Source: an archaeon (GTDB lineage Archaea; Nanobdellota; Nanobdellia; Woesearchaeales; UBA9642). Taken from it: DNA of 64,000 nucleotides. This document shows positions 1 through 50,974 of the stretch, piece after piece (the stretch's first letter is position 1; each line of letters starts with the position of its first letter). Location: positions 2,963 through 66,962 of the forward strand of contig JAZDHK010000016.1 in NCBI GenBank assembly GCA_043806035.1, written 5' to 3'. The position numbers and the translations under genes are program-made. The notes under the pieces are model-generated. The model worked only from the letters and a program-made list of their open reading frames with translations. It was not told the DNA's origin and did no database searches.

Positions 1-171
1 AATCAGGATGCTGACTTCATCATCGGCGGCTTGCACGGAGTCATGTGTGGAGTTACTGGCAGCTATTTTGCGGCAAAGGAAATGAAGGCGATGATGGAGA
101 GCAAGTATTTCAACATGCCCCAATACAAATTAGCTGACCTTGGCGATCATTGCGGAGACTTAGGCGTATGA
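1..171 (+). CDS. 3' end of an upstream gene (partial, hypothetical); frame 1 open from window start to TGA at 169-171
   Basis: Open frame ...DADFIIGGLHGVMCGVTGSYFAAKEMKAMMESKYFNMPQYKLADLGDHCGDLGV*; no recognisable family. Confidence 0.3.
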   Translation, partial: NQDADFIIGGLHGVMCGVTGSYFAAKEMKAMMESKYFNMPQYKLADLGDHCGDLGV

Positions 172-770
172 AAAAAACAACCCTGCTTATCATTGCGTTA
201 TTGTGCTTGCAGGTAGCGTATGCCACGTGTGACCGGGAAGACTGGTTCTGCGATGCGAGCGAATACGGCTTACGATGGAGCAATAGTGCGGGAACGTGGG
301 ATTTCTTCCTCTGGGATCCTAAAGGGAGCTCTGCCGGCGACCCCACCAAGTATGACATGAACTGGTATCCGTTGGAGCAGTGGGAGTATGATGCGTGCAC
401 GGTCGATTTTAGCAGTGACATCCATTCGAGCATGGCAAGCAGTGACGTGAGCGGGGAGAGCAAAGTCTATGACATCACCATACAAGCAACTGCACTGAGG
501 AAGAACATCACACAGCTTTCTGAGAATCTCACGTTCGAGACCATGACTAGCTATGAGTTCGAATGGTACGTGCAGCCGCCGTACGGCGACCAAGCGTATC
601 AGGTTGTCCTCAAGTCAGGCAGCACAGAAACAGTCCTGAAAGAGGACACAGCAAACTACATTACCGGCAGCGCGGGCTACCATCAAGAATACACGATAAA
701 TCAGTATGACCGACTGCTCATAAAATACAATGATCAAGAGTTCAACATTCCTGTGAGGTGGACGCAATGA
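150..770 (+). CDS. secreted hypothetical protein (N-terminal signal peptide, several Cys)
   Basis: MRRLRRMKKTTLLIIALLCLQVAYATC... hydrophobic h-region after a basic n-region; first gene of a + strand operon with overlapping junctions. Confidence 0.5.
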   Translation: MRRLRRMKKTTLLIIALLCLQVAYATCDREDWFCDASEYGLRWSNSAGTWDFFLWDPKGSSAGDPTKYDMNWYPLEQWEYDACTVDFSSDIHSSMASSDVSGESKVYDITIQATALRKNITQLSENLTFETMTSYEFEWYVQPPYGDQAYQVVLKSGSTETVLKEDTANYITGSAGYHQEYTINQYDRLLIKYNDQEFNIPVRWTQ

Positions 771-1546
771 AGTTCTCCTTTGAGCGGCTGCCGCATGTGT
801 TTCTTGTTGACGTACTTTCCTTCTTCGTTGTCCTTCTAACAGTCATTCTTTTCAGCACGGGCCTGGCCAGCACCATTTTGAAGATCAGTCCTGCCGCAGA
901 GACCATACTCTCCTATCAAGCAGGAGGGATGAGCGAGGAAGCATTCACGACCGTGCTAGCATCGTATGAAAGCTCTATCAGGGCAGTTTTTGCCAGCATC
1001 ACCTTGCTGCTCGTCCTGTTCTTCCTGGTCTTGTGCCTCTTACTGGCCTTATTCAGGGGCATGTCTTGGTCGCTGCTCAAAAAACAAGAACTCACACTCA
1101 AGGGGCTGCTGCGAATAACCTTGGCTACGCTGTATTTCGGCATTGCGTCCTTGCTGCTCGCGGTCATCGTGCTCTTGCTTGTCATCAAGACCAGCACCGT
1201 CATCGGGGCAATACTCATTTTCATCTACGTGTTGCTCTTCCTGCACTTCAGCCCGTTCGTCTTCAGCGCCTTTAACCCGAAAATTGGCCCGTTCAAGAAC
1301 TTCTTGAGTGTATTCACGAAAGGCATACTCGTGCACAAGTACTGGCTGTTCTATCTGCTCTGCATTGCAGGGCTTGTCGCCTGCGCCATACTGACGTACC
1401 TTGCCCGGTTCATCCATGATGTTGCGAGCGTCATCGTCCTGCTCATCAGCGCCTACACGTACTGGTTCCTTGCACGACAATACCACGTACACATCACTGT
1501 CGGACGTGACAAGAAAAGAAAAATTATGCACAAGAGGAGAGCATGA
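767..1546 (+). CDS. polytopic integral membrane protein (hypothetical)
   Basis: ATGA overlap with the upstream stop; more than 6 predicted hydrophobic helices; basic C-terminal tail. Confidence 0.5.
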   Translation: MKFSFERLPHVFLVDVLSFFVVLLTVILFSTGLASTILKISPAAETILSYQAGGMSEEAFTTVLASYESSIRAVFASITLLLVLFFLVLCLLLALFRGMSWSLLKKQELTLKGLLRITLATLYFGIASLLLAVIVLLLVIKTSTVIGAILIFIYVLLFLHFSPFVFSAFNPKIGPFKNFLSVFTKGILVHKYWLFYLLCIAGLVACAILTYLARFIHDVASVIVLLISAYTYWFLARQYHVHITVGRDKKRKIMHKRRA

Positions 1547-3687
1547 AAGGGCAAGTGACGATTTTTGTGGTTATTGGCATCGTCTTGCTGCTTGCCGTGG
1601 GCATCTTCATCTTCGTCATCAGCAAGAGTAAGACTGCACCTCCTACCTTGCCTGAGGTGCCTAATGAATTCCAAGCAGTGAGCCAGGTCATGGAGCAGTG
1701 CACGAACCAGTTGGCGGAGCAGGCAGTTCGCAGCATTGGCGAGCATGGTGGCTATCTTGACCCGTTCGACAGGGCATATGCGAGAAGGGATTTCTTGTAT
1801 GACCCTGCAGACCCCACAGCATCAGAGCTCTTGCCGCTAAGCCAGGACTATGCCATTCCGTACTGGTTCCATCTCGAGCCTCCCAATGTGTGCAGGTACT
1901 GTGTCGTAACGTCTGACGCCCCGACGCTCGAGGAAATGGAACGCCAGATACGCTTGTATGTTGAGGAGAACATGGCGGACTGCCTCGACTTCAGCCAATT
2001 GCAGGACTTCACAATAGAAGAGGGCAACGACAGCATTGCCACGGCAAGCATCACTGAATCTGATGTGACTGTGCTCTACAACCACACTCTTTTCATTAAA
2101 AAGAGCGATGGCAAGCAGTACACGCTCAATGCAGTCTTCACAACAGTTAACATTCCGCTAAAAGAGACGTACGCCATCGCAGCGGGATTGACGCAAGGAG
2201 AGATAGAAGGGCAGTTCATCGAGAACCTCATCCTGTACGAGCTCAACACGTACGGCGGTCTGCAATCAAACCAGCTTCCTCCCATGACTGCGCAAATGAC
2301 GCAAGGATACTATTTTGTGCTGTGGAGCCAAACGCGATCAAAACTAAGAATGAAAGAATTGCTCTCCCGAGACATCCCTGCATTGCAAGTGCGAAGCTCT
2401 GCCAACAGCAAGCCAGTCTTAGCACTGAGTTCTGCAGAGCAAGGCTTCTACACGGCTGCGGCGCTTGACTTCTTCCCGAATATCAGCATTGAGAGAACGA
2501 GCATCGACTTCATCTACATGAACTGGAATCCGTACATGGTCATCCAACCCAATAGGGGAGACATCATTTACCCCAGCCAGTATGAGGACAACCCTCCACT
2601 GTACTTGCCTCCCAGCAGGTTCAGTACCTACCAGTACTTCTACGACATATCCGTGCCTGTAGCGGTAGAAATAACCAGAGCCATTCCAGGCAAGGAGCCG
2701 TTCACGTTCGTCTTTGCCCTCGAAGGCAATATCCGGGAGAACAAGCGCATCATGGAGTGGCTGCTCGGCTATGGCACCATCCCTTGGGAGAATGACTTCG
2801 TCAGCATAGGTCAGAACGTCACTGACCCTGGCACGAACAGGACGTATGCCACGCTGCCCTCTCCAAGACTGCTCTGTGAAAACAGGCTATCTTCCCTGAC
2901 GACAGTGCGAACGTATGATGCCAGAACAAGAACTCCCCTTGATAACGTGAGTGTCACGTTCGGCTGCGGCGACTTTGGCAGTTGCCCCATCGGAAGAACG
3001 ACACTGCGGGATGGAAGAGCATTGCTTGCAGCAAAGCTTCCTTTGTGCATGAACGGCTACGTACTGCTCAGCAAGGACGGCTACAGGCCGACCGTACTGC
3101 CATTAACTACACGGGAGACTGAGGAAGTGAGCACGTCAGGATTCCTTGAACGCATCATACAAAAGAATGTGAGCATAAGAGTCATCCCTCTAAACTGGAC
3201 AGGAAGCAGCTTTAGTGCAAGTCCCCAAAGGTCATTGCTGCAAGGAGAGACAGTGATTCTGAACATCATCAAGAACGTGTCAGGATTAGAGGAGGAACAG
3301 GCCAACTCGCTCATCTTTGAAGGGGACGAGGAAAAGACTGCAGACTTCATCACAGGCAAATACACGGTAGAAGGCTTGCTCTTTTCGACAAAAGAAGTCA
3401 TCATTCCAAAGAATTGCGCGCAGCAGTGCATACGCGAATACCCTGTAGTTGGCGGATGCGCAGAACACGCATTCTACCCTCCTGACGATCTCAACCTCAC
3501 CGGCATGCCAGTTGGAGGGATTAGCTACACGTGGAGAATCTACAATGACGACCTTGATGGGCAGAACAAACTCATCGTGTATATTCTTGCCTTGCCCGAC
3601 CCTCCGTGCGTGGCTCAGCTGGAGTGGCAGAACAACTTAGGACAGTATGCTCGGGACTTCATGGCCTTGCCCCGCTTCAGCCAATAA
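1543..3687 (+). CDS. large cell-surface protein with class III (prepilin-like) signal peptide MKGQ
   Basis: N-terminus MKGQVTIFVVIGIVLLLAVGIFIFVISK matches the archaeal type IV pilin signal (K-G|Q, Gln at +1) followed by one TM helix; 714 aa extracellular region with many N-glycosylation sequons and Cys pairs; ATGA overlap with the upstream gene. Confidence 0.6.
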   Translation: MKGQVTIFVVIGIVLLLAVGIFIFVISKSKTAPPTLPEVPNEFQAVSQVMEQCTNQLAEQAVRSIGEHGGYLDPFDRAYARRDFLYDPADPTASELLPLSQDYAIPYWFHLEPPNVCRYCVVTSDAPTLEEMERQIRLYVEENMADCLDFSQLQDFTIEEGNDSIATASITESDVTVLYNHTLFIKKSDGKQYTLNAVFTTVNIPLKETYAIAAGLTQGEIEGQFIENLILYELNTYGGLQSNQLPPMTAQMTQGYYFVLWSQTRSKLRMKELLSRDIPALQVRSSANSKPVLALSSAEQGFYTAAALDFFPNISIERTSIDFIYMNWNPYMVIQPNRGDIIYPSQYEDNPPLYLPPSRFSTYQYFYDISVPVAVEITRAIPGKEPFTFVFALEGNIRENKRIMEWLLGYGTIPWENDFVSIGQNVTDPGTNRTYATLPSPRLLCENRLSSLTTVRTYDARTRTPLDNVSVTFGCGDFGSCPIGRTTLRDGRALLAAKLPLCMNGYVLLSKDGYRPTVLPLTTRETEEVSTSGFLERIIQKNVSIRVIPLNWTGSSFSASPQRSLLQGETVILNIIKNVSGLEEEQANSLIFEGDEEKTADFITGKYTVEGLLFSTKEVIIPKNCAQQCIREYPVVGGCAEHAFYPPDDLNLTGMPVGGISYTWRIYNDDLDGQNKLIVYILALPDPPCVAQLEWQNNLGQYARDFMALPRFSQ

Positions 3688-4831
3688 CATCATCTAAAGT
3701 GTAGTCTGTCTCGTTTGCCGTTGCATTCACCGTAACATAAGTTACGTTCGTCAAGAGGAGAATCTCTTGCGTTTGATTGTTTTGGGCATAGTCAGAAAGT
3801 GTCTTGAAGTAGTAGAGCTTGCTGCACAATTCTGCAGTCGTTGCGTTCGTGAACAAGTTACAGACGGCATAGTTACCTTGGTTCATGAACTGCAACAGGC
3901 AGGAGTCCCTGTCCTCAGCATCAGTTATTGCAGAGCACACATACGGATTGTTGGTCATTCTTGCCTCATTGATGATGCAGCTGGACGTTGTACACGCTGC
4001 AGGGATGACGGGATTTTCATCAATGATGATATCATAATACTCATCAGGAAGACTACTGGGTAAGGGTGTGCTTGAGCCGTTACTTGCGTTCGTTGCGTTT
4101 TGCACGACAGGAGAAGGACGAGAGGGTGTGTTGCTGATGATAGTGATGGAAAAGCTTGCCGTTGCCGTCTTGTCCTCATATGCTGCTTCGGAAAGCACAG
4201 TATACTTGCCTGCCGGCACCCATTTAGGCAAGGTGAGCTCTACGCTACGCCTTACAGAGGTATCGACTGCTATGGTCTCTTTTGCCTCATCCAATACCAC
4301 AGCAGTGCTGTCTACTAGTTTGTGCGTCAAGGTAACGTCAAACCTGCCCTTTCCCAAATTCACCAGGTCTGCGGAAAAACGCACAGTATCTCCTGGAAGG
4401 AGTGTACTTTGCTTGTTGCTTAAGGAATAATCCAGAAGCCCTTGTTTTGTAAAGAGGTGTTGCACGGCAAAAAATCCCCCGCCGATGAACAGGCCGATGA
4501 TGAACAGCGCAAAAATGACTTTGACTATGCTGCCCGTCGCAATATGATGAACGTGCACACTTGTTCCAAAAGCAGCGTCAACGTCTGCAGAAGTATAGCC
4601 TTGCTGGAGCAGCCACTGCCTCACCTGCAAGGGCGCGTAGCCTCTTCTGAGCATGTCCTGGACGTATGAGACAAGTGGTGAAACTGCAGGACTGCTGATC
4701 TGCTGAGAACTTTGCTGAAAGGCAGAAGCTATATCTCTTTCCGCATATCCTGCCCGCTTCAAAGCGAGAATGATTTGTTCTTTAGCATATCCTGCATTGA
4801 GCTGCTGCCGAACGTAATCCTGTAAGCCCAC
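3677..4831 (-). CDS. single-pass membrane protein with N-terminal tandem GY-x3-QI helical repeats and extracellular Ig-like/Thr-Ser-rich region
   Basis: N-terminus contains two ~34-aa repeats (YVRQQLNAGYAKEQIILALKRAGYAERDIASAF / YVQDMLRRGYAPLQVRQWLLQQGYTSADVDAAF), then TM helix VIFALFIIGLFIGGGFFAV, then an S/T/N-rich extracellular tail. Confidence 0.55.
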   Translation of the reverse strand: MGLQDYVRQQLNAGYAKEQIILALKRAGYAERDIASAFQQSSQQISSPAVSPLVSYVQDMLRRGYAPLQVRQWLLQQGYTSADVDAAFGTSVHVHHIATGSIVKVIFALFIIGLFIGGGFFAVQHLFTKQGLLDYSLSNKQSTLLPGDTVRFSADLVNLGKGRFDVTLTHKLVDSTAVVLDEAKETIAVDTSVRRSVELTLPKWVPAGKYTVLSEAAYEDKTATASFSITIISNTPSRPSPVVQNATNASNGSSTPLPSSLPDEYYDIIIDENPVIPAACTTSSCIINEARMTNNPYVCSAITDAEDRDSCLLQFMNQGNYAVCNLFTNATTAELCSKLYYFKTLSDYAQNNQTQEILLLTNVTYVTVNATANETDYTLDDVIG

Positions 4832-4893
4832 GCCACACCCCTTTTTGTCTTCATCGCATTCTTTGTTTTAATGTTTTTCCATAAAGTTTATTA

Positions 4894-7800
4894 ATGTTGC
4901 ATTTGCCAAACGAAATCATGGCAGATGCGAAGAAAGTCACGGCTGAGGACCTTGCCAAGAAGCAGCGGGACATCAGTATCGCAGAGTTCTTCGAGAAGAA
5001 CAGGCACTTGCTCGGCTTTGACAATCTGAGAAAGGCATTGCTCACCACTATCAAAGAAGCGGTGGATAATTCCCTTGATGCCTGTGAGGAAGCAAGGATT
5101 CTCCCAGAAATCAACGTTGAAGTCACGGACATGGGCAATAATCGCTTCAAGGTCACTGTGGAGGATAATGGACCGGGAATCGTCAAAGAACAAATCCCGA
5201 AGATATTCGCCAAGCTCTTGTATGGCAGCAAATTCCATAGCCTGAAACAATCACTTACTGGTGATCAGCCCGTTCTTATAAAAGAAAAGGGCAGGATTCG
5301 AATCGTAAAGATAGGAGAGCTTATTGACAAATACATTCAAGGAGAGGGCGTGTACGATTGCTTTGAAAAAGACATATTCTCCTTATCATTCGATGATGCG
5401 TACAAGTATTCTTTTAGAAAAGTGAGCCATCTGATAAAGCACGGGCGCGAGAACGAGATAGTACACATTAAAACAAGCTACGGCAAGAGCATAAAGGTGA
5501 CTGGCTGCCACAGTATTTTTGGCATCGATCGGAAAACATTGACGGTGAAGGAAATCAGGGCACGCGATCTGAAAAAAGGAGATTTAATACTGGCTCCGAA
5601 GAGAGTAAGTTTTGAAGAAAACGAATGCCAAAGCGAAATCAATGTACTTGATTACATCGACGTTTATGAGGCTAAAAAGCAAGGTTGGTACCTCTATACT
5701 GACAAGGACGAAATAAAAAAAATATTTGCAACTGCAAAAATCGTCCATCAAAAAAAAGACAATGACAAATCAAGAAAACACTACCTTCTCACTAAAAATG
5801 GGAACACAGTTGAAGTGCTTGATGACTCCTATAAACAATATGTGACAAAGGGATTCCTGCCTGTGTGGCTGGCAAAATTTCTCAGAATGAATGAAGGAGC
5901 AATAAGAACATATTTTCACGGAAAAGAATATGCTATTCCAGTAAAATTGCAGGTAACGAATGGGCTTGCAAAGCTCCTTGGCTTATTTGTCGCAGAAGGG
6001 CACGTTGACAGCAGGCAGATTGGCTTCACTTTTTCAAGAACAGAGCGAGACCTGGTACGACTCGTTTGCGAACAGGCGTTCCTGCTCGGCTCAAGCCACA
6101 CTGTAGAAGAGCGACCTGAAAAGAATTGCGTTCGGGTCAAACTGTTCGGAGGCTTGCTGAGCCATCTTTTCCGGACGTGGTGCGGTAAGGGGGCTCACAA
6201 CAAGAAGGTCCCCGAGTTTATATTCACAAGTCCCACAACAATACGTCAAGACTTCATCGATTATCTTTATATTGGAGACGGTCATAACACAAAAAATAGA
6301 AACCAACTCATGCTGACGACAGTTTCAGAAGAGCTTGCAAACCAAGTTGTCTATCTGTGGCTCTTACAGGGTGTTGTTTCGAGCATAACCCGCAGGATAA
6401 GCAAAGGACTAGGAAAGACGCCAAGCAAAATGTGTGTGGTGAGCGTGTATGGGCTGGACATAAACGTTTCAAACTACTTTTCAACAAATAATACGAATCT
6501 AAGGAGAAAAAGAAGACTAACCATGAGTGCAACTAGTCTTGCTAATAAGCTAGGCGCACACATAACTCTTGAAGAAGCGGGCTATCTTGAAAAATTACAG
6601 CTGCTGGACTGGAATAAAGACTATTCTTATGCGGAAATGACTGAGTTTTTTGGCACAGATAAGCCAGGTTATAAACTCAGATACTTGCTCGATAGCAATC
6701 ATCTTACACAAAACTCCTCAAACGGCTATTGTGTGACCTTGCAGCTAGTACAAAGATGTAAAGCATTCGAGCAAATAAAAAAACTTGCCATGTCAGATTT
6801 CTTGTTTTTGGATGTAAAGGAAATTGAAGTAATGCACGATGGATACGAGCACGTTTATGATTTGTCTGTCCCTGCGTGCGAGAATTTCGTAGCAGGTTTT
6901 GGAGGCATAGCTGCCCACAATTCCCGTGGTCAGCAGGGCATTGGAATCTCTGCTGCTGTGATGTATGCACAGTTGACAACAGGCAGACCAGCAAAGATTA
7001 CGAGCAGGACCTCACCTAGCAAGCCTGCCCATTATTACGAATTGCACATCAACAAGCAGACGAACAGTCCTGACATTTTGAAAGATGAGGAACGGGAGTG
7101 GAAGAAAGAGCACGGTACAAAAGTAGAGCTTGATTTGGAAGCGAATTACTTGAAAGGATCACAGAGCGTCGATGAGTATCTCAAGCAGACGGCCATCATC
7201 AACAGCCACATCACCCTCATCTACCTGAATCCAAAAGGAGAGCAGAAGGTCTATGCTCGAGCAACAACCCAGCTTCCTCCTGAACCTAAAGAAGTGAAGC
7301 CTCACCCGCACGGCCTAGAATTTGGTATGCTGCAGAACTTGCTTAAGGGCACGGAATCACGGACGTTGCAGAGCTTCCTCACAAACGACCTCTCAAGAGT
7401 GGGAAGCCAGACGGCAAAGGACATCTGCGATAACGCCCTACTCGACCCGAAGATGAAGCCAGGAAAGCTCATGCATGCCGATGTTGAAAAACTCATCACT
7501 GCCATCAAAAATGCAAAAATAATGGCCCCTTCCGCAGACAGCATCTCACCCATAGGGACGGAGAGCATAGAAAAAGGCATCAGGAAGGAAATCAATGCTG
7601 AATTTTATTGCAGCGTCAGCAGGCCTCCCTCAGTGTATAGGGGAAATCCATTCCAGATAGAAGTTGCAATAGCGTATGGCGGCGAGCAGCCAGGCGACCA
7701 GACAGCGAACGTCATTCGATTCGCCAACCGCGTCCCACTACTCTATCAGCAAGGCGCATGTGCGATAAGCAAGAGCATCATGACCACGAACTGGAAAGCA

Positions 7801-8259
7801 TATGGCCTGAACCAGAGCAACAACCAACTGCCCGTGGGTCCCCTGACCATTCTCGTCCATATCGCAAGCGTCTGGGTTCCCTTCACGTCAGAGAGCAAGG
7901 AAGCCATAGCACACTACCCTGAAATCATAAAAGAAATTAAGCTTGCCCTACAAGAGGCGGGTAGAAAATTGCAGACGTACGTTCATAAGAAGAAAAGAGT
8001 TGGTGTTGAGCTGCAGAAAAGAAGCTACATAGAGAAGTACATTCCCGCGGTTGCCGAAAGCATCATCACCTTGGCTGAACTCAAGAAGGAAGAGAAAGGA
8101 AAGATTGAAGAACATCTCAAGGACATCCTGGAACGGCACAGAGGGGAGCTTGAGGACATGAGCTTTGATGAGGACAAGAATGCAGAGTACAAAGAGGAAT
8201 TGGCAGCAAGGCGTACAGCTGATCTGGACACGGATGATGAGCAGAAGGAGGATGACTGA
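4894..8259 (+). CDS. top6B: DNA topoisomerase VI subunit B, interrupted in-frame by a 557-aa intein (extein 564 aa)
   Basis: N-extein has DNGPGI (GHKL G1 box) and FAKLLYGSKFH. After the insertion the sequence resumes SRGQQGIGISAAV (ATP-lid G2 box). The remainder matches the Top6B transducer domain and ends in an acidic C-terminal tail. Confidence 0.9.
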   Translation: MLHLPNEIMADAKKVTAEDLAKKQRDISIAEFFEKNRHLLGFDNLRKALLTTIKEAVDNSLDACEEARILPEINVEVTDMGNNRFKVTVEDNGPGIVKEQIPKIFAKLLYGSKFHSLKQSLTGDQPVLIKEKGRIRIVKIGELIDKYIQGEGVYDCFEKDIFSLSFDDAYKYSFRKVSHLIKHGRENEIVHIKTSYGKSIKVTGCHSIFGIDRKTLTVKEIRARDLKKGDLILAPKRVSFEENECQSEINVLDYIDVYEAKKQGWYLYTDKDEIKKIFATAKIVHQKKDNDKSRKHYLLTKNGNTVEVLDDSYKQYVTKGFLPVWLAKFLRMNEGAIRTYFHGKEYAIPVKLQVTNGLAKLLGLFVAEGHVDSRQIGFTFSRTERDLVRLVCEQAFLLGSSHTVEERPEKNCVRVKLFGGLLSHLFRTWCGKGAHNKKVPEFIFTSPTTIRQDFIDYLYIGDGHNTKNRNQLMLTTVSEELANQVVYLWLLQGVVSSITRRISKGLGKTPSKMCVVSVYGLDINVSNYFSTNNTNLRRKRRLTMSATSLANKLGAHITLEEAGYLEKLQLLDWNKDYSYAEMTEFFGTDKPGYKLRYLLDSNHLTQNSSNGYCVTLQLVQRCKAFEQIKKLAMSDFLFLDVKEIEVMHDGYEHVYDLSVPACENFVAGFGGIAAHNSRGQQGIGISAAVMYAQLTTGRPAKITSRTSPSKPAHYYELHINKQTNSPDILKDEEREWKKEHGTKVELDLEANYLKGSQSVDEYLKQTAIINSHITLIYLNPKGEQKVYARATTQLPPEPKEVKPHPHGLEFGMLQNLLKGTESRTLQSFLTNDLSRVGSQTAKDICDNALLDPKMKPGKLMHADVEKLITAIKNAKIMAPSADSISPIGTESIEKGIRKEINAEFYCSVSRPPSVYRGNPFQIEVAIAYGGEQPGDQTANVIRFANRVPLLYQQGACAISKSIMTTNWKAYGLNQSNNQLPVGPLTILVHIASVWVPFTSESKEAIAHYPEIIKEIKLALQEAGRKLQTYVHKKKRVGVELQKRSYIEKYIPAVAESIITLAELKKEEKGKIEEHLKDILERHRGELEDMSFDEDKNAEYKEELAARRTADLDTDDEQKEDD
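5251..6921 (+). mobile_element. intein with LAGLIDADG homing-endonuclease domain inside top6B
   Basis: Junctions KQ|SLTGDQPVLI ... FVAGFGGIAAHN|SRGQQ. Splicing blocks: A (SLTGDQPV), B (VTGCHSIFGI), F/G (VYDLSVPACENFVAGFGGIAAHN followed by +1 Ser). Two LAGLIDADG motifs (LAKLLGLFVAEGHVD, FIDYLYIGDGHNT). The central part is conspicuously A-rich compared with the host gene. Confidence 0.85.
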
Positions 8260-9341
8260 TGAATCCTGTCGTTGAGAAGATGATGAAGCTGGCAAAGGAC
8301 ATGCATCAGGACATTCTCAAGGATAACCAGCCGAAGATAACCTCTCCACTGCGAAGCTTGAACAATGTGACGTATGATGACAAGAAAGGTTATTTTGAGT
8401 TGCTCGGCAAGGTCAAGACAAGAACGCTCACGGCAAGCAGTATGAAGACGTTTGCGCAGACGCTCAAGATGATGGAGCTCAGCAAGCAGCTCATCAACAC
8501 AAAAGACATTGCAGCAAAGAGGGACGTGTACTATCAGAGCAAGAATTGGGGCGATGCCAAATTTACTGAGCAGCCTGAGTCTGACGCGATTATGGATGAT
8601 GTCGAAGCCATGCTTACTGTGAACAGGGAACAGCTTGGCTTTGTCCCCGATGAGGACGGTTCGTCCGTTGCTGGAGAACTCATTATTGTCGACAAAGATC
8701 CGGAAACGGGCAACCCAGTCGAGATAGACTGCACAAAGCTAGGCACGGGTGGCTATAACATCCCGAATAGTGTCGAGCATTTCAAGTTCAAAACGAAGGC
8801 AAAGTTTGTATTGGCTATAGAGACGTCGGGTATGTTTCAGCGCTTGAACTACCACAAGTATTGGAGGAAGCAGAACTGCATCCTTGTTTCACTTAAAGGC
8901 GTGCCGAGCAGGGCTACACGGCGGTTCTTGAGGAAGCTCAGTGATGAGAATGCCCTGCCCATCTACGTGTTCACGGACGGCGATCCATACGGATACTTGA
9001 ACATCTACAGAACGCTGAAAGTTGGTTCGGGTAATGCCGCACACATTAACAAGTTCTTCTGCGTGCCCAACGCAAAATATTTAGGAGTCACTCCTCAGGA
9101 CATCATCGATTACAAGTTGCCGACACACGCGCTCAAGGATATTGACATCAAACGAGTGAAGGATGGCATGAAGAACGATCCATTCGTCATGCACTATAAA
9201 GAATGGCAGAAAGCGCTCAAGCAGCTCGTGGACATGAAGAAGAGAGCTGAGCAGCAGGCTCTTGCAGCATGGGGCCTCAATTTCGTGATGTCAGACTACC
9301 TGCCACAAAAGCTCAAAAACCCGAAGAGCTGGCTGCCGTGA
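8259..9341 (+). CDS. top6A: DNA topoisomerase VI subunit A (Spo11 family)
   Basis: 360 aa; start codon overlaps the top6B stop (ATGA); Toprim/winged-helix regions typical of Top6A (e.g. YVFTDGDPYGY). Confidence 0.9.
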   Translation: MNPVVEKMMKLAKDMHQDILKDNQPKITSPLRSLNNVTYDDKKGYFELLGKVKTRTLTASSMKTFAQTLKMMELSKQLINTKDIAAKRDVYYQSKNWGDAKFTEQPESDAIMDDVEAMLTVNREQLGFVPDEDGSSVAGELIIVDKDPETGNPVEIDCTKLGTGGYNIPNSVEHFKFKTKAKFVLAIETSGMFQRLNYHKYWRKQNCILVSLKGVPSRATRRFLRKLSDENALPIYVFTDGDPYGYLNIYRTLKVGSGNAAHINKFFCVPNAKYLGVTPQDIIDYKLPTHALKDIDIKRVKDGMKNDPFVMHYKEWQKALKQLVDMKKRAEQQALAAWGLNFVMSDYLPQKLKNPKSWLP

Positions 9342-9404
9342 ACACGTAGTTCTTGCATAGCTTATTTCACAGCATATTTAAACCATCAACCACTCACTTT
9401 TTCC

Positions 9405-10133
9405 GTGTTAAAAGCAGACTTCCACTTGCACGCGAAAGAGGACACGCAGGATTGGATTGCATATACTGCCAAAGAACTGGTAGACCTGGCTGTCAACAAG
9501 GGCTTCTCGGTTTTGAGCTTTACCTTTCACGATGTCTGTTTCTACCCAAAAGAACTGGTCACGTATGCGAGAAAGAAAGGCATACTGCTTCTGCCCGGCA
9601 TTGAAAAAACCATCGAACACAAACACGTGTTGCTTATCAACTATCCCTTGCGGGACAAGAAAAAGATCGAGCAAATAGATAATTTCTCCACCTTACGAAA
9701 ATACCTGAATTCACTGAAATTGGTTGAAAGAGAGTCTCTGTTGACTGTTTTTGCCCATCCTCGATTTTGGTTCATAGGCATGAGCAAAAGCGTGTTCAGG
9801 AAGAACATAGACCTTGCAGACGCTTTAGAATACCAAAGTTTCAGACATGTCCTGTACGATTTCAACGAAGATATACTTCGACTTGCAAGCAAATACCACA
9901 AGAGAACGATAGGCAATACGGATGCACACCTGCTCAATCAATTTGGCCATACGTACACGAATATAGTTGCAAAAAAAGAAGCAAAAAGCATAATACAAGC
10001 GATAAAAAGGGGAAAATCCAACATAACGAGCAGGTCCTTGTCTACAATGATAGTGCTCGCACGCATATACCTCGACGTGAAGACCATTCTGCGGCAGACC
10101 TGCTTTCTGCTTGGCCTCAGAAAGACACTTTAA
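9405..10133 (+). CDS. PHP-superfamily metal-dependent phosphoesterase; possibly RNase P protein subunit Rpp30-like
   Basis: GTG start; N-terminal DFHLHAKED... and SFTFHD motifs typical of the PHP / RNase_P_p30 clan; 242 aa. Confidence 0.45.
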   Translation: MLKADFHLHAKEDTQDWIAYTAKELVDLAVNKGFSVLSFTFHDVCFYPKELVTYARKKGILLLPGIEKTIEHKHVLLINYPLRDKKKIEQIDNFSTLRKYLNSLKLVERESLLTVFAHPRFWFIGMSKSVFRKNIDLADALEYQSFRHVLYDFNEDILRLASKYHKRTIGNTDAHLLNQFGHTYTNIVAKKEAKSIIQAIKRGKSNITSRSLSTMIVLARIYLDVKTILRQTCFLLGLRKTL

Positions 10134-10176
10134 CTGCAGCACAATATTTAAAAAGCCTGCAAAGAGAAAGTGAGTT

Positions 10177-10749
10177 ATGATCAGGAAAGGCGATGAACGG
10201 GATATTCTTGTAACAAAATTCGAGATAGATGTCGATGACGTTTTCCACCTAAAGAACCTCTATAAAACTATCTACGAATGGACAAAAATAGAGGGATGGA
10301 AGGCAGCGGATGGCAACGGAGAACCAGAAATGCTCTATTGGGAACGCAGAACACAAGTGACTGAGCACCAGATTTGGTGGAGATTCATGATGAAGCCAGA
10401 CAATAATACCTACTTCACGTATTTTCTCAAGATAGACTACCAGACGCTGGCCATGGGAGGAACAGAAGTCCCTTACGATGGGAAGAAGATAAAGAGCAAT
10501 AAGGGAGAGGTTATATTGCGTGTACAGGCGTGGCTCCTTGTCGATCCCGATAACAAATGGGACGATGCCACATTTCTTAAACAGATTGAGCGCATATTCA
10601 GAAAGCGCATTTACAAACAACAGATTGAAGATTACAAGAAAAGATTGGAAATAATTACTGAACGGCTGCGAAACACGATAAAGACATACCTGCAACTGCA
10701 GATGCCATACACGCCACTCAAACCGTTCATGCCTGAACGCGGCGTATAA
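10177..10749 (+). CDS. hypothetical protein
   Basis: 190-aa ORF with coding-like composition, Trp-rich, no recognisable motif. Confidence 0.45.
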   Translation: MIRKGDERDILVTKFEIDVDDVFHLKNLYKTIYEWTKIEGWKAADGNGEPEMLYWERRTQVTEHQIWWRFMMKPDNNTYFTYFLKIDYQTLAMGGTEVPYDGKKIKSNKGEVILRVQAWLLVDPDNKWDDATFLKQIERIFRKRIYKQQIEDYKKRLEIITERLRNTIKTYLQLQMPYTPLKPFMPERGV

Positions 10750-10778
10750 TTTTTATACTGTTACTGATTCTTCAAGAT

Positions 10779-11600
10779 ATGGACGTCGTGCGTGAAGTGC
10801 TTGCCATACTGGGTGAACAGGCAGCAGATAAGCTTACGCCAGCACCAGAGATAGCATCACTCCCTGCTGCACGGCCACATCTTTCTTTTTTCATCGATGG
10901 CAGTCATGCAGAGATGGGAAAACTCACATTCGTACGGACGATAGCGTTTGCCTACAAGGGAAACATTCAAAAAAAGTTTAAGAGAGAATTTTATGTTATA
11001 GGACAGCAAAGCATTCCTGCACAAGATAGCTCTGGCAGAGAAGACGCTGGACTCATGCGCCGCCTTGCCGAGCTTCGACTTGCAGAAGACATAGCAAAAC
11101 AGCATGAAAACGCACTTATCGTTCTTGATGGAAGCCTCGACAGCCCTACTGTTGAAGAGCAAAACTCACTTTTGCGCCTTGAAAAGACATGCATATCTAG
11201 GAACAATACGCTCGCAGGCATATCAAAAACGTGTTCCTACACGTTACAAGGTAAGCTCGTCACGAATGTTGTTGAGCATTGCTGCAAAACAGGATATATT
11301 CCCTTTGGAGAGAGTTTCATCGTGAAACTGCACGAGAAGGCAACATACGCGTTCCGTCTGGATGTGAAGGGAGATTTCATGCAAGCACTACAGGCACTTC
11401 GCTACTATGCGAATGACCCGTCTTTTTTCGGCTATCCGTATCCGCTCATTCGCGCAGACGCACAAGCAAAAATTACGCAGAAAGAGATACAAGCAAAGAA
11501 GAGTCTCCTAGCAAGCAGGGCAGGAAAAGACTGGTCACGGATAAAAGGGCTGTTACAGGATGCGCACGTAATTATAGACAAAATAAACAAAAATGGTTAA
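10779..11600 (+). CDS. putative NurA-like nuclease domain protein
   Basis: Two DGS motifs (FFIDGSH, IVLDGSL) spaced as in the NurA 5'-3' nuclease / RNase H-like fold; 273 aa; no adjacent HerA. Confidence 0.35.
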   Translation: MDVVREVLAILGEQAADKLTPAPEIASLPAARPHLSFFIDGSHAEMGKLTFVRTIAFAYKGNIQKKFKREFYVIGQQSIPAQDSSGREDAGLMRRLAELRLAEDIAKQHENALIVLDGSLDSPTVEEQNSLLRLEKTCISRNNTLAGISKTCSYTLQGKLVTNVVEHCCKTGYIPFGESFIVKLHEKATYAFRLDVKGDFMQALQALRYYANDPSFFGYPYPLIRADAQAKITQKEIQAKKSLLASRAGKDWSRIKGLLQDAHVIIDKINKNG

Positions 11601-11805
11601 AAGAGACGTTCTATCAACCAATTTCTCAATATTTTATCAAAAAAGACTTTCTTTCAAAAAGAATGCGTTTTCTTCCCTGTTTATATCAAACATGCAACAA
11701 AAAACATAAGCAAATTCATCAGAAAACAAGGTTTCAGACGTTCTACTAACCATTTTCACTAGTTTAGAAAAAAAGATGAACTAGATTGACTGAAACACAT
11801 ATCCT

Positions 11806-12819
11806 TTGCCACCCACAACATTTTTAAATAATTCGAACTCTGAACTAAATATGCAGTATGATGTCATTTCCATTGGTAGTGCAACTGTCGATGTGTTCAT
11901 CAAAACCGCCATCTCGGACATCATAGATCCATCCGAAAAGAGGGGTGACGAATTGCTCTGCTATCCGTTGGGAGAAAAAATTCTCATAAATCATCTTGAA
12001 TTCCAGACGGGAGGGGGAGGAACCAATACATCAGTTGCTTTTGCTCGTCTAGGACTTAAAACTGCTTATCTTGGCCAGCTAGGTGAAGATGATAATGCAG
12101 ACCGTGTTTTGGCTGTGCTAAAGAGAGAAAAAGTGACCTTTCTAGGCAGCAAAAAGGGAAAGACGGGCTATTCTGTGATACTGGACAGCAAAGCAAAGGA
12201 CAGGACAATTCTCACTTATAAGGGGGCAAATGATGCATTCCGTTTCAAACCGCCAAAAGAAAAAACAACGTGGGCATACTGTGCGAGCATGACAGGAAAT
12301 AGCTTCAAGGAACTCGTCAAGGCAGCGACGTATTTCAAAAAAAAAGGGGCAAAAATTGCGTTCAATCCAAGTATGTACATTGCAAAAATGGGCAAAACTA
12401 TTTTGTCAAAATTGCTCAAGCAATGTGATGTTCTTATCCTCAATAGAGAAGAAGCAATGGCGCTGCTTGGGCAAGAAATGGACATTCCACGGGCAGTATG
12501 TGCTCTCAGAGCGCTTGGTCCAGGGATTGTGGGCATTACCGATGGCAATAGGGGTGCGTGGGCGGCAGATGCAAATAATGCATTTCATGTCAATCCATTG
12601 CCAGTAAACGTGTGTGAGACAACGGGTGCTGGAGATGCATTTGCAAGCAGTTTTGTTGCGGGTCTTTTCTATGGATTGTCTCTTCAAGATTGCATGCGGC
12701 TGGGCATGACTAATGCGGAAAGCGTCATAACTCACTATGGCGCAAAAAATAATCTGCTTACGAAGAAACTCGCTTTCGCTCAGCTAAAACGGGATGCACA
12801 CTCCTTTTCTAAAGTCTGA
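11806..12819 (+). CDS. PfkB-family carbohydrate/nucleoside kinase (ribokinase-like); true start probably the internal Met at about 11851 (MQYDVISIGS)
   Basis: N-terminal GG-type motif (YDVISIGSATVDVF); C-terminal anion hole/ATP motif ETTGAGDAFASSFVAGL diagnostic for the PfkB family. Confidence 0.8.
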   Translation: MPPTTFLNNSNSELNMQYDVISIGSATVDVFIKTAISDIIDPSEKRGDELLCYPLGEKILINHLEFQTGGGGTNTSVAFARLGLKTAYLGQLGEDDNADRVLAVLKREKVTFLGSKKGKTGYSVILDSKAKDRTILTYKGANDAFRFKPPKEKTTWAYCASMTGNSFKELVKAATYFKKKGAKIAFNPSMYIAKMGKTILSKLLKQCDVLILNREEAMALLGQEMDIPRAVCALRALGPGIVGITDGNRGAWAADANNAFHVNPLPVNVCETTGAGDAFASSFVAGLFYGLSLQDCMRLGMTNAESVITHYGAKNNLLTKKLAFAQLKRDAHSFSKV

Positions 12820-12975
12820 CTTAAAAAGATGTGTTGTGAAGATACAGGCAATAATAAAGAAAACAAACAACATAAACGGTTTGAAGAGGCTCTCTTTTAA
12901 CCAAATCTGTTATCTTTCACAAAACACATCAAATAAGGACAACCCACGTGAATAACAAGAAAAGGTAATCCCGTA

Positions 12976-44708: not shown

Positions 44709-44867
44709 ATGCCTTTCCTCGTCAGATGTCCTGCCTGCAAAAACACGATGCTCGTCCAGCCGAGACTGCAGCCAGGTGAGGAACTTGCGCCAAAACGGAA
44801 GGTGTGCGTCTACTGCGGAAAGAGCTTTTCTGTGAGAAAACAAGCGCTAAAATACCTCATTCGTTGA
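44709..44867 (+). CDS. small C4 zinc-ribbon protein (52 aa)
   Basis: [14 protein letters not shown]...CVYCGKSF; start chosen at the Met directly before the first CxxC. Confidence 0.4.
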
Positions 44868-44947
44868 GAGGAACAGCGTCAGAAAAAAAGCAAAACACTT
44901 ATAAACCGGGTTGGTTTTTCAGCGTCGATAAAAACAGGAAGACCCCC

Positions 44948-47392
44948 ATGACGAACACGCCATCACAAGAACCATCTGTCCCGCACGAATCACGCATTCT
45001 CAAAGAGATTGTTGAGCAGAAAATGAAGTCTGCATACATAGATTATGCCATGTCCGTCATTGTCAACCGTGCCTTGCCCGATGTGCGTGACGGCCTAAAA
45101 CCAGTCCATCGCAGAGTATTGTATGCCATGAATGATCTAGACTTGGCACACAACAAAGCACACAAGAAGTGTGCAAGGATTGTCGGAGAAGTCTTGGGAA
45201 AGTACCACCCCCACGGTGATAGTGCCGTGTATGAGACATTGGTGCGCATGGCACAGGACTTCTCGCTGCGCTACCCTCTCGTCGATGGACAGGGAAATTT
45301 TGGTAGCATCGATGGGGATAATGCTGCTGCGATGAGATATACGGAAGCACGACTCAGCAAGATTGCAGGAGAAATGCTGCTGGACATTGACAAAGAAACC
45401 GTTGATTTCAAGGACAATTTCGATGCCACCCTGCAAGAGCCCGACGTGCTACCCTCACGCATTCCCAATCTCATCATGAACGGCAGTAATGGCATAGCAG
45501 TGGGCATGGCGACGAACATTCCTCCACACAATCTTCAGGAGATAGGGAAGGCAATCATTGCACTCATTGACAACCCTGAACTGAGCGTTGCCGAGATTAT
45601 CACACACGTGCAAGGTCCTGACTTTCCTACGGGGGGCATCGTCGCTGGCAGGAGCGGCATCGTGTCCGCCTATACGACAGGAAGAGGCATCATCCAGCTG
45701 AAAGGCGTCATGCAAGTACATGAGGTTAAGGAGAAAAAGCGCATCATCATTTCTGAAATTCCCTACCAGGTAAACAAGGCGCAACTCATTGAGGAAATTG
45801 CAGGATTAGTACGTGACAAAAAAATCACGGACATCAGTGACATGCGTGACGAAAGCAATCAAGAGGGCATACGTATCGTGCTTGAGCTGAAGCGGGATGC
45901 ACATCCCGACATCGTCATGAATGTCTTATACAAATTCTCGAGAATGCAAGTGAGTTACAGCATCAACATGCTTGCTCTTGTCGACAATGAGCCGAAGCTG
46001 CTTTCACTGAAGCACGCACTCGTACACTATATCGATCATCGAAAAATTATTGTTGTCAGGAAAGCTCAGTTTGAGCTCAAAAAGGCACAGGAACGGGCAC
46101 ATATCCTTGAAGGTTTGCAGAAGGCCTTGCAGCACATTGATGCCGTCGTTGCGCTCATCAAGAAAGCCGCAAAGGTTGAAGATGCAAAGCAGAAGCTGAT
46201 TGCAGAGTACGGATTGAGTGATGTACAGGCACAAGCCATTCTCGAAATGCGCCTGCAAAGAATCGCCCAGTTGGAACAGGAAAAAATCGTGCAGGAACAT
46301 CAGGGACTCGTGAAAACCATCAGGCAACTCCAGCACCTGCTCTCACACGATGAAGCCATACGTGATGTCATGAAACAGGACCTGGTTGAGGTGATGAAGC
46401 TGTATGGAGATGATCGGAAGACAGTTATCAGCGATGAGGATGAGTCCCTTGAGCTAGAGGAACTCATACCTGACACGATGCAGGTCATCACCCTGACGAG
46501 ATCTGGGTATATCAAAAGAACAGCGCTTGACATTTTCAAGGTGCAGCGACGAGGAGGCAAAGGAGTCATTGGTACGGACAAGAAGGATGAGGATGTTGTC
46601 GAGCACATTTTCGTGGCAAGCACCCGTGCGTCATTGCTCATCTTCACTGACAAAGGGCTGGTGCATTGGCTCAAGATCTGGAAAATCCCTGAAGGCAACA
46701 GATATGGTAAGGGCAAAGCTCTCATCAATCTCGTTGAGCTTGACAAAGAGCAGGTCACGGCAGTCATTCCCGTCAAGGAATTCACGGACAAGGAATGCTT
46801 GATCATGGCGACAAAGCGTGGTGTCGTCAAAAAAACGAACCTGAACGAATATGCAAATCCTCGACGAGGGGGTATCAAGGCCATCGCTTTCGACGAGGGT
46901 GATGTCCTCGTTAATGTCATAAAAACAAAAGGCAATGCAACACTCATCCTTGCAACAAAAAAAGGCATGGCGAGCAAGTTCAGTGAGCATGATGTACGTA
47001 GCGTTGGGAGGACTGCGCGAGGTGTGCGAGGTATACGCTTGCGTCAAGGTGATGCTGTGGTGGGTATGGTTATTGGGGAAGACACCAAAAAGTTGCTGAC
47101 CGTTACCGAGCATGGGTTCGGTAAAAAAACGCTTATCAGCGAATACCGCTGCATCAACAGAGGGGGCAGTGGCGTCATTAACATCCGTTGTGGGGAGCGA
47201 AATGGACCTGTTGCGTGCGTTCGCAGCATTACGGATACGGACGAATTGTTGTTTGTTTCTAAGAATGGCATCATGATCAGGACTTCTGCAGCAGACATTC
47301 CCACAGTAGGAAGAAATACACAGGGTGTGCGTATCATGAAACTCGATCAAGGAGACATCGTGGTAAGCGCTGCAAAAATTTATGGTGAGTAA
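44948..47392 (+). CDS. gyrA: DNA gyrase subunit A (no intein); start at [10 protein letters not shown]
   Basis: [24 protein letters not shown]; catalytic region [10 protein letters not shown]; C-terminal beta-pinwheel repeats. Confidence 0.95.
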
Positions 47393-50023: not shown

Positions 50024-50974
50024 ATGCACGACATCTGGACGGAAAAGTACAGGCCGAAGACGTTTGCTGAGGTGAAGGGCCAGCAGGAAGTCATCAAGAG
50101 AGTAGAGGCGTTGGTCAAGCAAAAAAACTTACCTCATCTCATGTTTGCAGGCCCTGCTGGCGTTGGCAAGACAACTCTCGCACTCGTCGTGGCACATCAG
50201 CTGTACGGCAAAGACTGGAAAGAGCACGTTCTTGAACTCAACGCCTCTGACGAGCGAGGCATCGACGTCATCCGTGTTAAAGTGAAAGAGTTCGCAAGGA
50301 CAAAAGCTATAGAGGCAGTCCCCTTCAAGATCATTTATCTCGACGAATGCGATGCACTGACGAAAGAGGCCCAGCAAGCGCTGAGAAGGACCATGGAGAA
50401 CTACACGCAGACGTGCAGGTTCATCCTCTCCTGCAATTACTCAAGCAAGATTATCGATCCGATCCAAAGCAGGTGCATGCTCTTCAAGTTCAAGCCATTG
50501 AGTCAAGAGGACATTGAAAACGTTATAGACAACATCGCCAAGCAGGAGAAGCTGCATATGAGCAAGGAAACAAAAGCTGCCTTGTACGAAGTGACCCGAG
50601 GTGATTGCAGGCGTGCAGAGAACGTCCTGCAAGGGGCAGCAGCCCTCTCGACGACCATAACGGAAAAGGAAATATACGAAGTGGCTAGTGTCGCAAAGCC
50701 CAAGGAGATCATTGATGTGCTGGAGCTTGCAGCAAAAGGCAGATTCTTGGATGCGAAGCAGCGGCTGCTCGATACCATGCTCAAACACGGCCTTGGCGGG
50801 CTTGATGTCATCAAGCAAATGCAGCAGAGCGCCTGGCAGCTCTCCTTGTCAGATCATGCGAAGCTCGAGCTGGTCATGCTCTGTGGAGAGATAGAATTCA
50901 GGATGGTTGAGGGCAGCGATGACTTCATCCAGCTAGAAACACTGCTTGCAAAAACGGCACTTCTCAAAAAATAA
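50024..50974 (+). CDS. rfcS: replication factor C small subunit (no intein)
   Basis: WTEKYRP box, Walker A GPAGVGKTT, DEAD-like YLDECDAL, SRC motif (QSRC). Confidence 0.95.
   Translation: MHDIWTEKYRPKTFAEVKGQQEVIKRVEALVKQKNLPHLMFAGPAGVGKTTLALVVAHQLYGKDWKEHVLELNASDERGIDVIRVKVKEFARTKAIEAVPFKIIYLDECDALTKEAQQALRRTMENYTQTCRFILSCNYSSKIIDPIQSRCMLFKFKPLSQEDIENVIDNIAKQEKLHMSKETKAALYEVTRGDCRRAENVLQGAAALSTTITEKEIYEVASVAKPKEIIDVLELAAKGRFLDAKQRLLDTMLKHGLGGLDVIKQMQQSAWQLSLSDHAKLELVMLCGEIEFRMVEGSDDFIQLETLLAKTALLKK

Follow-up and report, generated by a model that had tools for sequence, protein, structure and literature searches.

In the 64,000-nucleotide (nt) stretch of archaeal DNA analysed here, which we call the window (contig JAZDHK010000016.1), the gene for subunit B of DNA topoisomerase VI (top6B) carries an insert at positions 5251-6921. 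We read this insert as a canonical class-1 intein with a LAGLIDADG homing endonuclease, located in the GHKL domain of Top6B and representing the Woesearchaeota version of a known top6B allele, and we give this reading a probability of roughly 0.93. An intein had already been proposed there from the letters of the DNA, in what we call the original prediction, and all parts of that interpretation that could be checked in silico proved right, namely the precise insertion, the splicing residues, the two LAGLIDADG motifs, the fold and the sporadic distribution. The gene, its parts and its downstream neighbour are the following (lengths in amino acids, aa):

4894..8259, plus strand: top6B precursor open reading frame (ORF), 1121 aa plus stop.
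4894..5250, plus strand: N-extein, 119 aa, N-terminal part of the GHKL ATPase with the N box and the G1 box (DNGPGI), ending in ...LLYGSKFHSLKQ.
5251..6921, plus strand: intein, 557 aa (Ser1 to His556-Asn557), precursor aa 120-676.
5251..5610, plus strand: N-terminal splicing (Hint) region, intein aa 1-120, matched by TIGR01445 and all-beta in the model.
5611..5958, plus strand: alpha/beta insertion that follows the Hint N-lobe and precedes the endonuclease, intein aa 121-236, from the secondary structure of the AlphaFold2 model.
5959..6462, plus strand: LAGLIDADG homing-endonuclease core, intein aa 237-404, Pfam LAGLIDADG_3.
5965-6006, plus strand: LAGLIDADG motif 1, LAKLLGLFVAEGHV (LFVAEGH), with E249 at 5995-5997.
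6253-6288, plus strand: LAGLIDADG motif 2, FIDYLYIGDGHN (YIGDGH), with D343 at 6277-6279.
6529..6789, plus strand: predicted winged helix-turn-helix (wHTH) module, intein aa 427-513, lying after the endonuclease and before the C-terminal splicing region.
6796..6921, plus strand: C-terminal splicing region, intein aa 516-557, matched by TIGR01443, with blocks F and G.
6922..8259, plus strand: C-extein, 445 aa plus stop, with the G2 box GQQGIG at 6928-6945, the rest of the GHKL domain, and the H2TH and transducer domains.
8259..9341, plus strand: top6A, gene of the partner subunit, 360 aa, with Pfam TP6A_N, Topo_VI_alpha and TOP6A-Spo11_Toprim.

Regarding the host gene, the ORF has the 1121 aa that had been claimed for it, and its product matches the NCBIfam equivalog PRK04184 (DNA topoisomerase VI subunit B) in two stretches with 693 bits. 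Once the insert is excised, the 564-aa product matches the same equivalog in a single stretch (positions 4-529 of 539) with 717.5 bits. The Pfam domain HATPase_c is found in the N-extein (47-108) and Topo-VIb_trans in the C-extein (6.2e-61). The insert was confirmed to the base, 557 aa between KQ and SRGQQGIG; the junctions read LLYGSKFHSLKQ / SLTGDQPVLI ... AGFGGIAAHN / SRGQQGIGISAA, and the reading frame is open through both of them. Furthermore, the excision restores a contiguous ATP-lid motif, as had been predicted: the 564-aa product holds LKQSRGQQGIGISAAV, which is the same 16-mer as residues 106-121 of Methanosarcina mazei Top6B (PDB 2q2e).

The GxxGxG sequence of the G2 box is motif III of the Bergerat fold, the fold of the GHKL ATPases. 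The intein is placed between a Gln and a Ser, which by alignment correspond to Q108 and S109 in M. mazei and to Q103 and T104 in S. shibatae. In topoVI-B' of the latter species residues 107-111 are the ATP lid, and residues 97-106 are the adjoining loop, which contacts the ribose and the beta-phosphate and supports dimerisation (Corbett and Berger, PMC1616964). The site had been described as the ATP lid (G2 box), which is a fair description, although the exact spot precedes the first Gly of GQQGIG by two residues and is in the loop 97-106 at the edge of the lid. The unspliced precursor would be unable to form a competent ATP site.

This position bears on the idea that the intein was co-opted as a conditional switch, where splicing gated by stress, redox or DNA would free the topoisomerase VI ATPase only conditionally, along the lines of the 'panic button' idea (Novikova et al. 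2016, PMC4760082). An insertion in the nucleotide-binding loop beside the ATP lid implies that the precursor must be inactive, inteins are enriched in the ATP-binding sites of replication proteins (PMC4760082), and a predicted DNA-binding winged-helix module is present in this one. Nevertheless, we consider such a switch very unlikely: there is no specific sign of regulation in the sequence, Ser1 and Ser+1 offer no redox handle, most close relatives do without the intein, and insertion into an active-site motif is equally explained by a homing endonuclease needing a conserved target.

The reading as a canonical class-1 intein is carried by the splicing regions, in which all the class-1 splicing residues are intact. 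The Pfam family Intein_splicing matches the insert with 1.3e-22 and 80.8 bits (2.6e-22 and 79.7 bits were also obtained; gathering cutoff 35.8), and the NCBIfam models intein_Nterm (TIGR01445, 6.6e-12) and intein_Cterm (TIGR01443, 7e-05) are both above cutoff. We found all the blocks that had been claimed. Block A (SLTGDQPV) starts with Ser1 at 5251-5253, block B (TGCH) is T84-G-C-H87 at 5500-5511, block F is VYDLSVPACENFVAG, and block G (GGIAAHN) finishes with His556-Asn557 at 6916-6921; the end of the intein and the following residue read ...VYDLSVPACENFVAGFGGIAAHN/S, the codon of Ser+1 being 6922-6924. A Hint domain of the BIL/Hedgehog type was considered and rejected, since HN with Ser+1 and a homing endonuclease are present. 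After translation of the 1121-aa precursor, an N-O acyl shift would take place at Ser1, attack by Ser+1 would give a branched intermediate, Asn557 would cyclise with the assistance of His556, and ligation of the exteins would produce the 564-aa Top6B with its KQ-SRGQQGIG loop and G2 box intact, whereas no ATP site would exist before splicing.

A rival explanation is that the insert arose as a chimera during assembly, or that it cannot splice and has turned the gene into a pseudogene. It is true that the exact 1121-aa product, or the 1113-aa product of an alternative start, has no record in the protein collection searched. However, the frame is open over both junctions, the splicing residues are all intact, top6A comes directly next in an overlapping operon arrangement, and the same architecture is found independently in 52 species-level genomes and in 12 metagenome proteins. 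The probability of an artefact or a pseudogene is therefore practically negligible, and we continue with the intein.

An AlphaFold2 model of the intein, built from 13 sequences, reached a predicted local distance difference test score (pLDDT) of 88.8 and a predicted template modelling score of 0.86. Its Hint fold is supported by Foldseek matches to intein structures at probability 1.00; the first of the matches to the whole model is PI-PkoII (2cw7, 7.7e-31), followed by the Tli and Pho VMA inteins (7qss), PI-PfuI (1dq3) and PI-SceI. Sequence matches in the PDB also start with PI-PkoII (3.6e-31) and go on with TFIIB mini-inteins and archaeal VMA inteins. The order of the domains in the model is the Hint N-lobe (1-120), the alpha/beta insertion (121-236), the LAGLIDADG core (237-404), a low-confidence linker (405-426), a helical module with a beta hairpin (427-513) and the Hint C-lobe (516-557).

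PI-PkoII, or PI-TkoII, is the Pol-2 intein of the DNA polymerase of Thermococcus kodakarensis, and it is the best match among solved structures by both sequence and fold (template modelling score, TM, 0.62-0.64). Both inteins have a Hint domain split by a LAGLIDADG endonuclease and an extra module after the N-terminal Hint lobe, whereas the host protein and the insertion site are different and the identity is about 20%. In the window's family this extra module, the alpha/beta insertion, is 113-123 aa long in all full-size members, and from its position relative to PI-PkoII it may be a module similar to a DNA-recognition region (DRR-like). PI-SceI (yeast VMA1), the archaeal VMA inteins (7qss) and PI-PfuI (1dq3) are likewise bifunctional inteins with two LAGLIDADG motifs and accessory DNA-binding regions, but they are distant (10-17% identity), they have Cys1 nucleophiles and other hosts, and TM is lower for PI-SceI.

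Regarding the endonuclease, Pfam LAGLIDADG_3 matches it in two stretches (6.9e-14, with 3.4e-13 also obtained; above its gathering cutoff), and the two LAGLIDADG motifs of the original prediction are there with their acidic residues, E249 and D343, each of which is kept in 35 of the 36 family members that still have an endonuclease. The secondary structure of the model over residues 237-406 agrees with the alpha-beta-beta-alpha-beta-beta-alpha pseudo-dimer, and Foldseek matches the central domain to I-DmoI and I-Tsp061I. The freed 557-aa intein would be a monomeric two-motif LAGLIDADG enzyme, with E249 and D343 as putative catalytic residues, and from the complete conservation of the catalytic residues we infer that it would be active in splicing and in homing. 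Free intein would then cut top6B alleles that lack it, at a sequence across the junction, and the element would spread when the break is repaired from the copy with the intein; extra DNA contacts would probably come from the DRR-like and winged-helix modules.

The second accessory module is the one at residues 427-513. In both the full model and a separate model of residues 418-515 (pLDDT 80.5) it shows three helices, a beta hairpin and a long helix. Foldseek matches of the isolated model are at the top almost all winged-helix proteins of the MarR, IclR or Sso10a kind, with TM up to 0.70 and E-values of only 0.02-0.17. A profile of 19 such segments of the family matches the winged-helix protein Sso10a (1r7j, E 0.0019), and Pfam HTH_45 matches nine of the 19. 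The segment of the window has no match in Pfam when it is taken alone, so the support comes from the family profile and the structure. The likeness to Sso10a, HTH_45 and the MarR type consists of the helix-helix-helix-hairpin topology followed by the long helix; nevertheless, the similarity is weak (profile E 0.002) and the known modules are free-standing, while this one is embedded in an intein. Judging from its fold, the module may be an accessory DNA-binding module.

Long family members, including the window intein and apparently that of the haloarchaeon DL31, have about 100 extra residues at this place. Only top6B inteins of the long class (549-591 aa) have the module; those of the short class (463-489 aa) lack it. 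From LAGLIDADG motif 2 to the C-terminal splicing block there are only about 80 residues in PI-PkoII but about 140 in the window intein, which leaves no room in the alignment for a counterpart of the ~90-aa module. We found no description of winged-helix modules in inteins in the literature, in a search that was far from exhaustive and returned only unrelated papers on restriction enzymes. A speculative proposal, which we regard as doubtful, is that the module is an accessory DNA-binding domain gained or lost by the family, which would change the length or affinity of the endonuclease target or tether the precursor or the free intein to DNA. If this were true, the top6B inteins would be a natural series for how homing endonucleases acquire specificity modules.

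In order to look at empty sites, we used the best 120 homologues of the spliced extein, which are 64-79% identical to it and mostly labelled Woesearchaeota or Nanoarchaeota. They are 542-700 aa long and none of these 120 has an intein Pfam domain; it is on this account that we call the distribution sporadic. In the alignment of the precursor with intein-free Top6B (alignment A1) the gap is clean and falls exactly after Q119 and before the +1 residue, as expected in the original prediction. The closest extein relative (P0019, 79%) is encoded on L053, a JGI contig collinear in gene order with positions 150-12800 of the window. By tblastn with the separate exteins, the N-extein falls at 6007-6324 and the C-extein at 6325-7602 of this contig, abutting at 6324/6325, and the intein has no match on it. 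We took the junction from this search and not from a nucleotide alignment. Default blastn between the window and the collinear contig gave no matches at about 68% identity, and the gap placed by MAFFT on the nucleotides (5239-5464 plus 5480-6924) was rejected, as chance similarity had misplaced the N-terminal junction.

The +1 residue was compared in alignment A1 and in the supplementary alignment of Soucy et al. In intein-free Top6B it is Ser, Gln (Woesearchaeota P0021, P0023 and P0044) or Asn (Haloarcula), and in all the intein-bearing alleles seen it is Ser or Thr. Alleles with Gln or Asn could not support splicing, and therefore they may be refractory to productive invasion.

Top6B inteins have been reported before. 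Soucy et al. 2014 (PMC4071816) list a top6B allele in 8 halobacterial genomes, not marked as newly discovered, and Novikova et al. 2016 (PMC4760082) count 15 Top6B inteins in Euryarchaeota and 'other Archaea'. We read the site of the known inteins from supplementary file 12 of Soucy et al. 2014, where DL31 has ...GKLLYGSRFHAREQ/SLTPDQRLLV...NEGALSVKN/SRGQQGIGIS, that is, the same site as the window, and hence the possibility of a new insertion site was rejected. The haloarchaeal inteins (DL31 YP_004808658.1, Haloquadratum walsbyi) share with ours the site ...LLYGS[KR]FH..[KE]Q / SLT.DQ ... / SRGQQGIGIS, Ser1, Ser+1 and the order of the domains, including the long segment after the endonuclease. 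BLASTP aligns the DL31 intein with residues 1-557 of ours at 32% identity (239 bits, E 3e-76). However, their hosts are Halobacteria and the host here is a DPANN/Woesearchaeota-like archaeon, the identity is only 32%, and the DL31 intein ends in Lys-Asn instead of His-Asn and has TGNH in block B (N for C). On the sequence comparison, the window intein is a divergent new member of the published top6B intein allele, in a Woesearchaeota lineage.

A search with the intein retrieved 12 metagenome proteins with a homologous intein at the same Top6B site (37-52% identity). Two of them, P0002 and P0008, lose the frame near the C-terminal junction and are either decaying copies or assembly errors: P0002 stops before block G, and P0008 continues after the junction as HNSRDSRALAF.... 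We also scanned one genome per GTDB species with a DNA pattern for HN-[S/T/C]-RGQQGIG and obtained at least 52 loci, in 52 GTDB species genomes, with ...HN/[S/T]RGQQGIG. This is a lower bound because the scan needs exact His-Asn plus SRGQQGIG; the haloarchaeal inteins with their Lys-Asn end are missed, which explains why no Halobacteria appeared. All 52 loci have a block-G-like sequence ahead of HN. Complete inteins could be delimited in 37 of them; these always start with Ser (36 with SL), directly after ...LLYGSKFxxxxQ. Among 38 complete inteins S1, T84, H87, Y536, D537, N545 and F546 are invariant. By size there are two mini-inteins of 216 aa (L036) and 264 aa (L025) that have lost the endonuclease, a short class of 463-489 aa, two intermediate forms of 515 and 529 aa, and a long class of 549-591 aa.

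The archaeal carriers are labelled Woesearchaeota/Nanoarchaeia, Aenigmatarchaeota, Parvarchaeota, Hadarchaeota and uncultured Methanosarcinales, and there are also carriers among metagenome-assembled genomes (MAGs) with the bacterial labels Acidobacteriota, Eisenbacteria and Planctomycetota. Ten MAGs labelled Planctomycetota, Acidobacteriota/Vicinamibacteria or Eisenbacteria (L014, L020, L022, L024, L028, L034, L037, L038, L050 and L051) have the same intein at the same Top6B site. Their inteins are long forms (515-591 aa) and the hosts are rich in GC; the Eisenbacteria contigs measure 2.3 Mb and 512 kb. The metagenome proteins P0006-P0008 seem to belong to this clade as well. Provided that the binning is correct, the top6B intein allele would cross the boundary between archaea and bacteria together with bacterial topoisomerase VI.

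The identities of inteins and exteins are weakly correlated (Spearman rho 0.33), which is consistent with horizontal movement, and the pattern of the family as a whole is consistent with the usual course of a homing element, which enters a site, stays there, degenerates and spreads elsewhere. The decay in this pattern leads to another explanation, namely that the intein still splices while its endonuclease has lost its homing activity, so that it would be a fixed and vertically inherited passenger late in the homing cycle. The family does pass through decay, as the mini-inteins without endonuclease show, one member has E249G and another D343N, the two metagenome homologues P0002 and P0008 look frameshifted or truncated, and the nearest relative of the window intein is only 65% identical. 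On the other hand, this intein has both catalytic acidic residues, the Gly/His beside them and the K318/P321 block undamaged, as do about 35 of 36 full-size relatives, and such conservation speaks for purifying selection acting on the nuclease; the nearest relatives by extein have no intein, and the GC content at third codon positions (GC3) differs between intein and host gene. A passenger without homing activity is thus somewhat unlikely, and we keep the reading as an intein with a homing endonuclease.

Regarding base composition, the intein had been said to be A-rich relative to the host gene, and this was not borne out, because A makes up 33.8% of the intein and 32.5% of the exteins. The A runs that had been seen around 5690-5770 are real: there are two A8 runs, at 5715 and 5750, both in a Lys-rich stretch. 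The actual signal is a low GC content (41.8% against 49.0% in the exteins) and a low GC3 (0.434 against 0.590), with T at 24.5% against 18.5%. The GC of the intein is in the lowest 0.6% of the 1671-nt windows of the 64 kb. This compositional signal is real but modest.

Some points weigh against our reading of the element. The GC3 of the intein is only 1.8 standard deviations under the mean of 47 ORFs of the window. It is also uneven inside the intein, since the module at 121-236 and the segment at 405-515 have 0.35-0.36 and the endonuclease core has 0.52, near the host gene, so it could partly reflect the amino-acid content of Lys/Asn-rich modules. At position 555 the intein has Ala, while Cys stands there in 33 of 38 relatives, although this residue is not known as catalytic. 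Finally, no near-identical copy of the intein was found, the closest being L043 with 65% identity, and therefore recent mobility is not established.

The mosaic composition of the intein, whose most AT-rich part is the alpha/beta insertion at 121-236 (GC3 0.345), might come from different histories of the modules or just from Lys/Asn-rich sequence. There is a second low-GC stretch in the window at 10200-12820, with 1671-nt windows down to 41.3% GC. It contains a gene with a NurA domain (10779-11600, GC3 0.43) and a PfkB-family kinase gene (11806-12819, GC3 0.405, the lowest of the window). This locus is collinear with L053, and hence it is probably no recent insertion.

Concerning the surroundings of the intein, the stop codon of top6B and the start codon of top6A share one base (TGATG, 8257-8261), and this overlapping operon arrangement is also kept in L053. 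The start at ATG 4894 puts MLHLPNEI ahead of a second Met (MADAKKVTAEDL...). The N-termini of the homologues align from about this second Met, which they fit better, and thus the true start may be ATG 4918 (M9), giving a 1113-aa precursor. GyrA and RFC of the window lack inteins, as the original prediction stated (GyrA at 44804..47392, 862 aa; the small subunit of RFC at 50024..50974, 316 aa). A second intein elsewhere in the window was also considered and rejected, since a search of the six-frame translation of the 64 kb with a hidden Markov model of the family found no second copy. The presence of GyrA (862 aa) together with topoisomerase VI in one window means that this DPANN-like archaeon has both gyrase and topoisomerase VI.

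An annotation of this gene should name it as an intein-containing Top6B precursor and not as a fusion or a protein of double length. The intein also needs to be removed before Top6B phylogenies or structure modelling, as Villain et al. 2022 did with the inteins of Top6A/B sequences ahead of their phylogeny. The window intein is an ordinary, intact-looking example of a known mobile element and opens no new question on inteins or topoisomerase VI. Actually, what it does is to extend the range of the top6B intein allele known from haloarchaea to the DPANN archaea; found in many archaeal lineages and in some MAGs with bacterial labels, this allele is a useful marker of gene flow.

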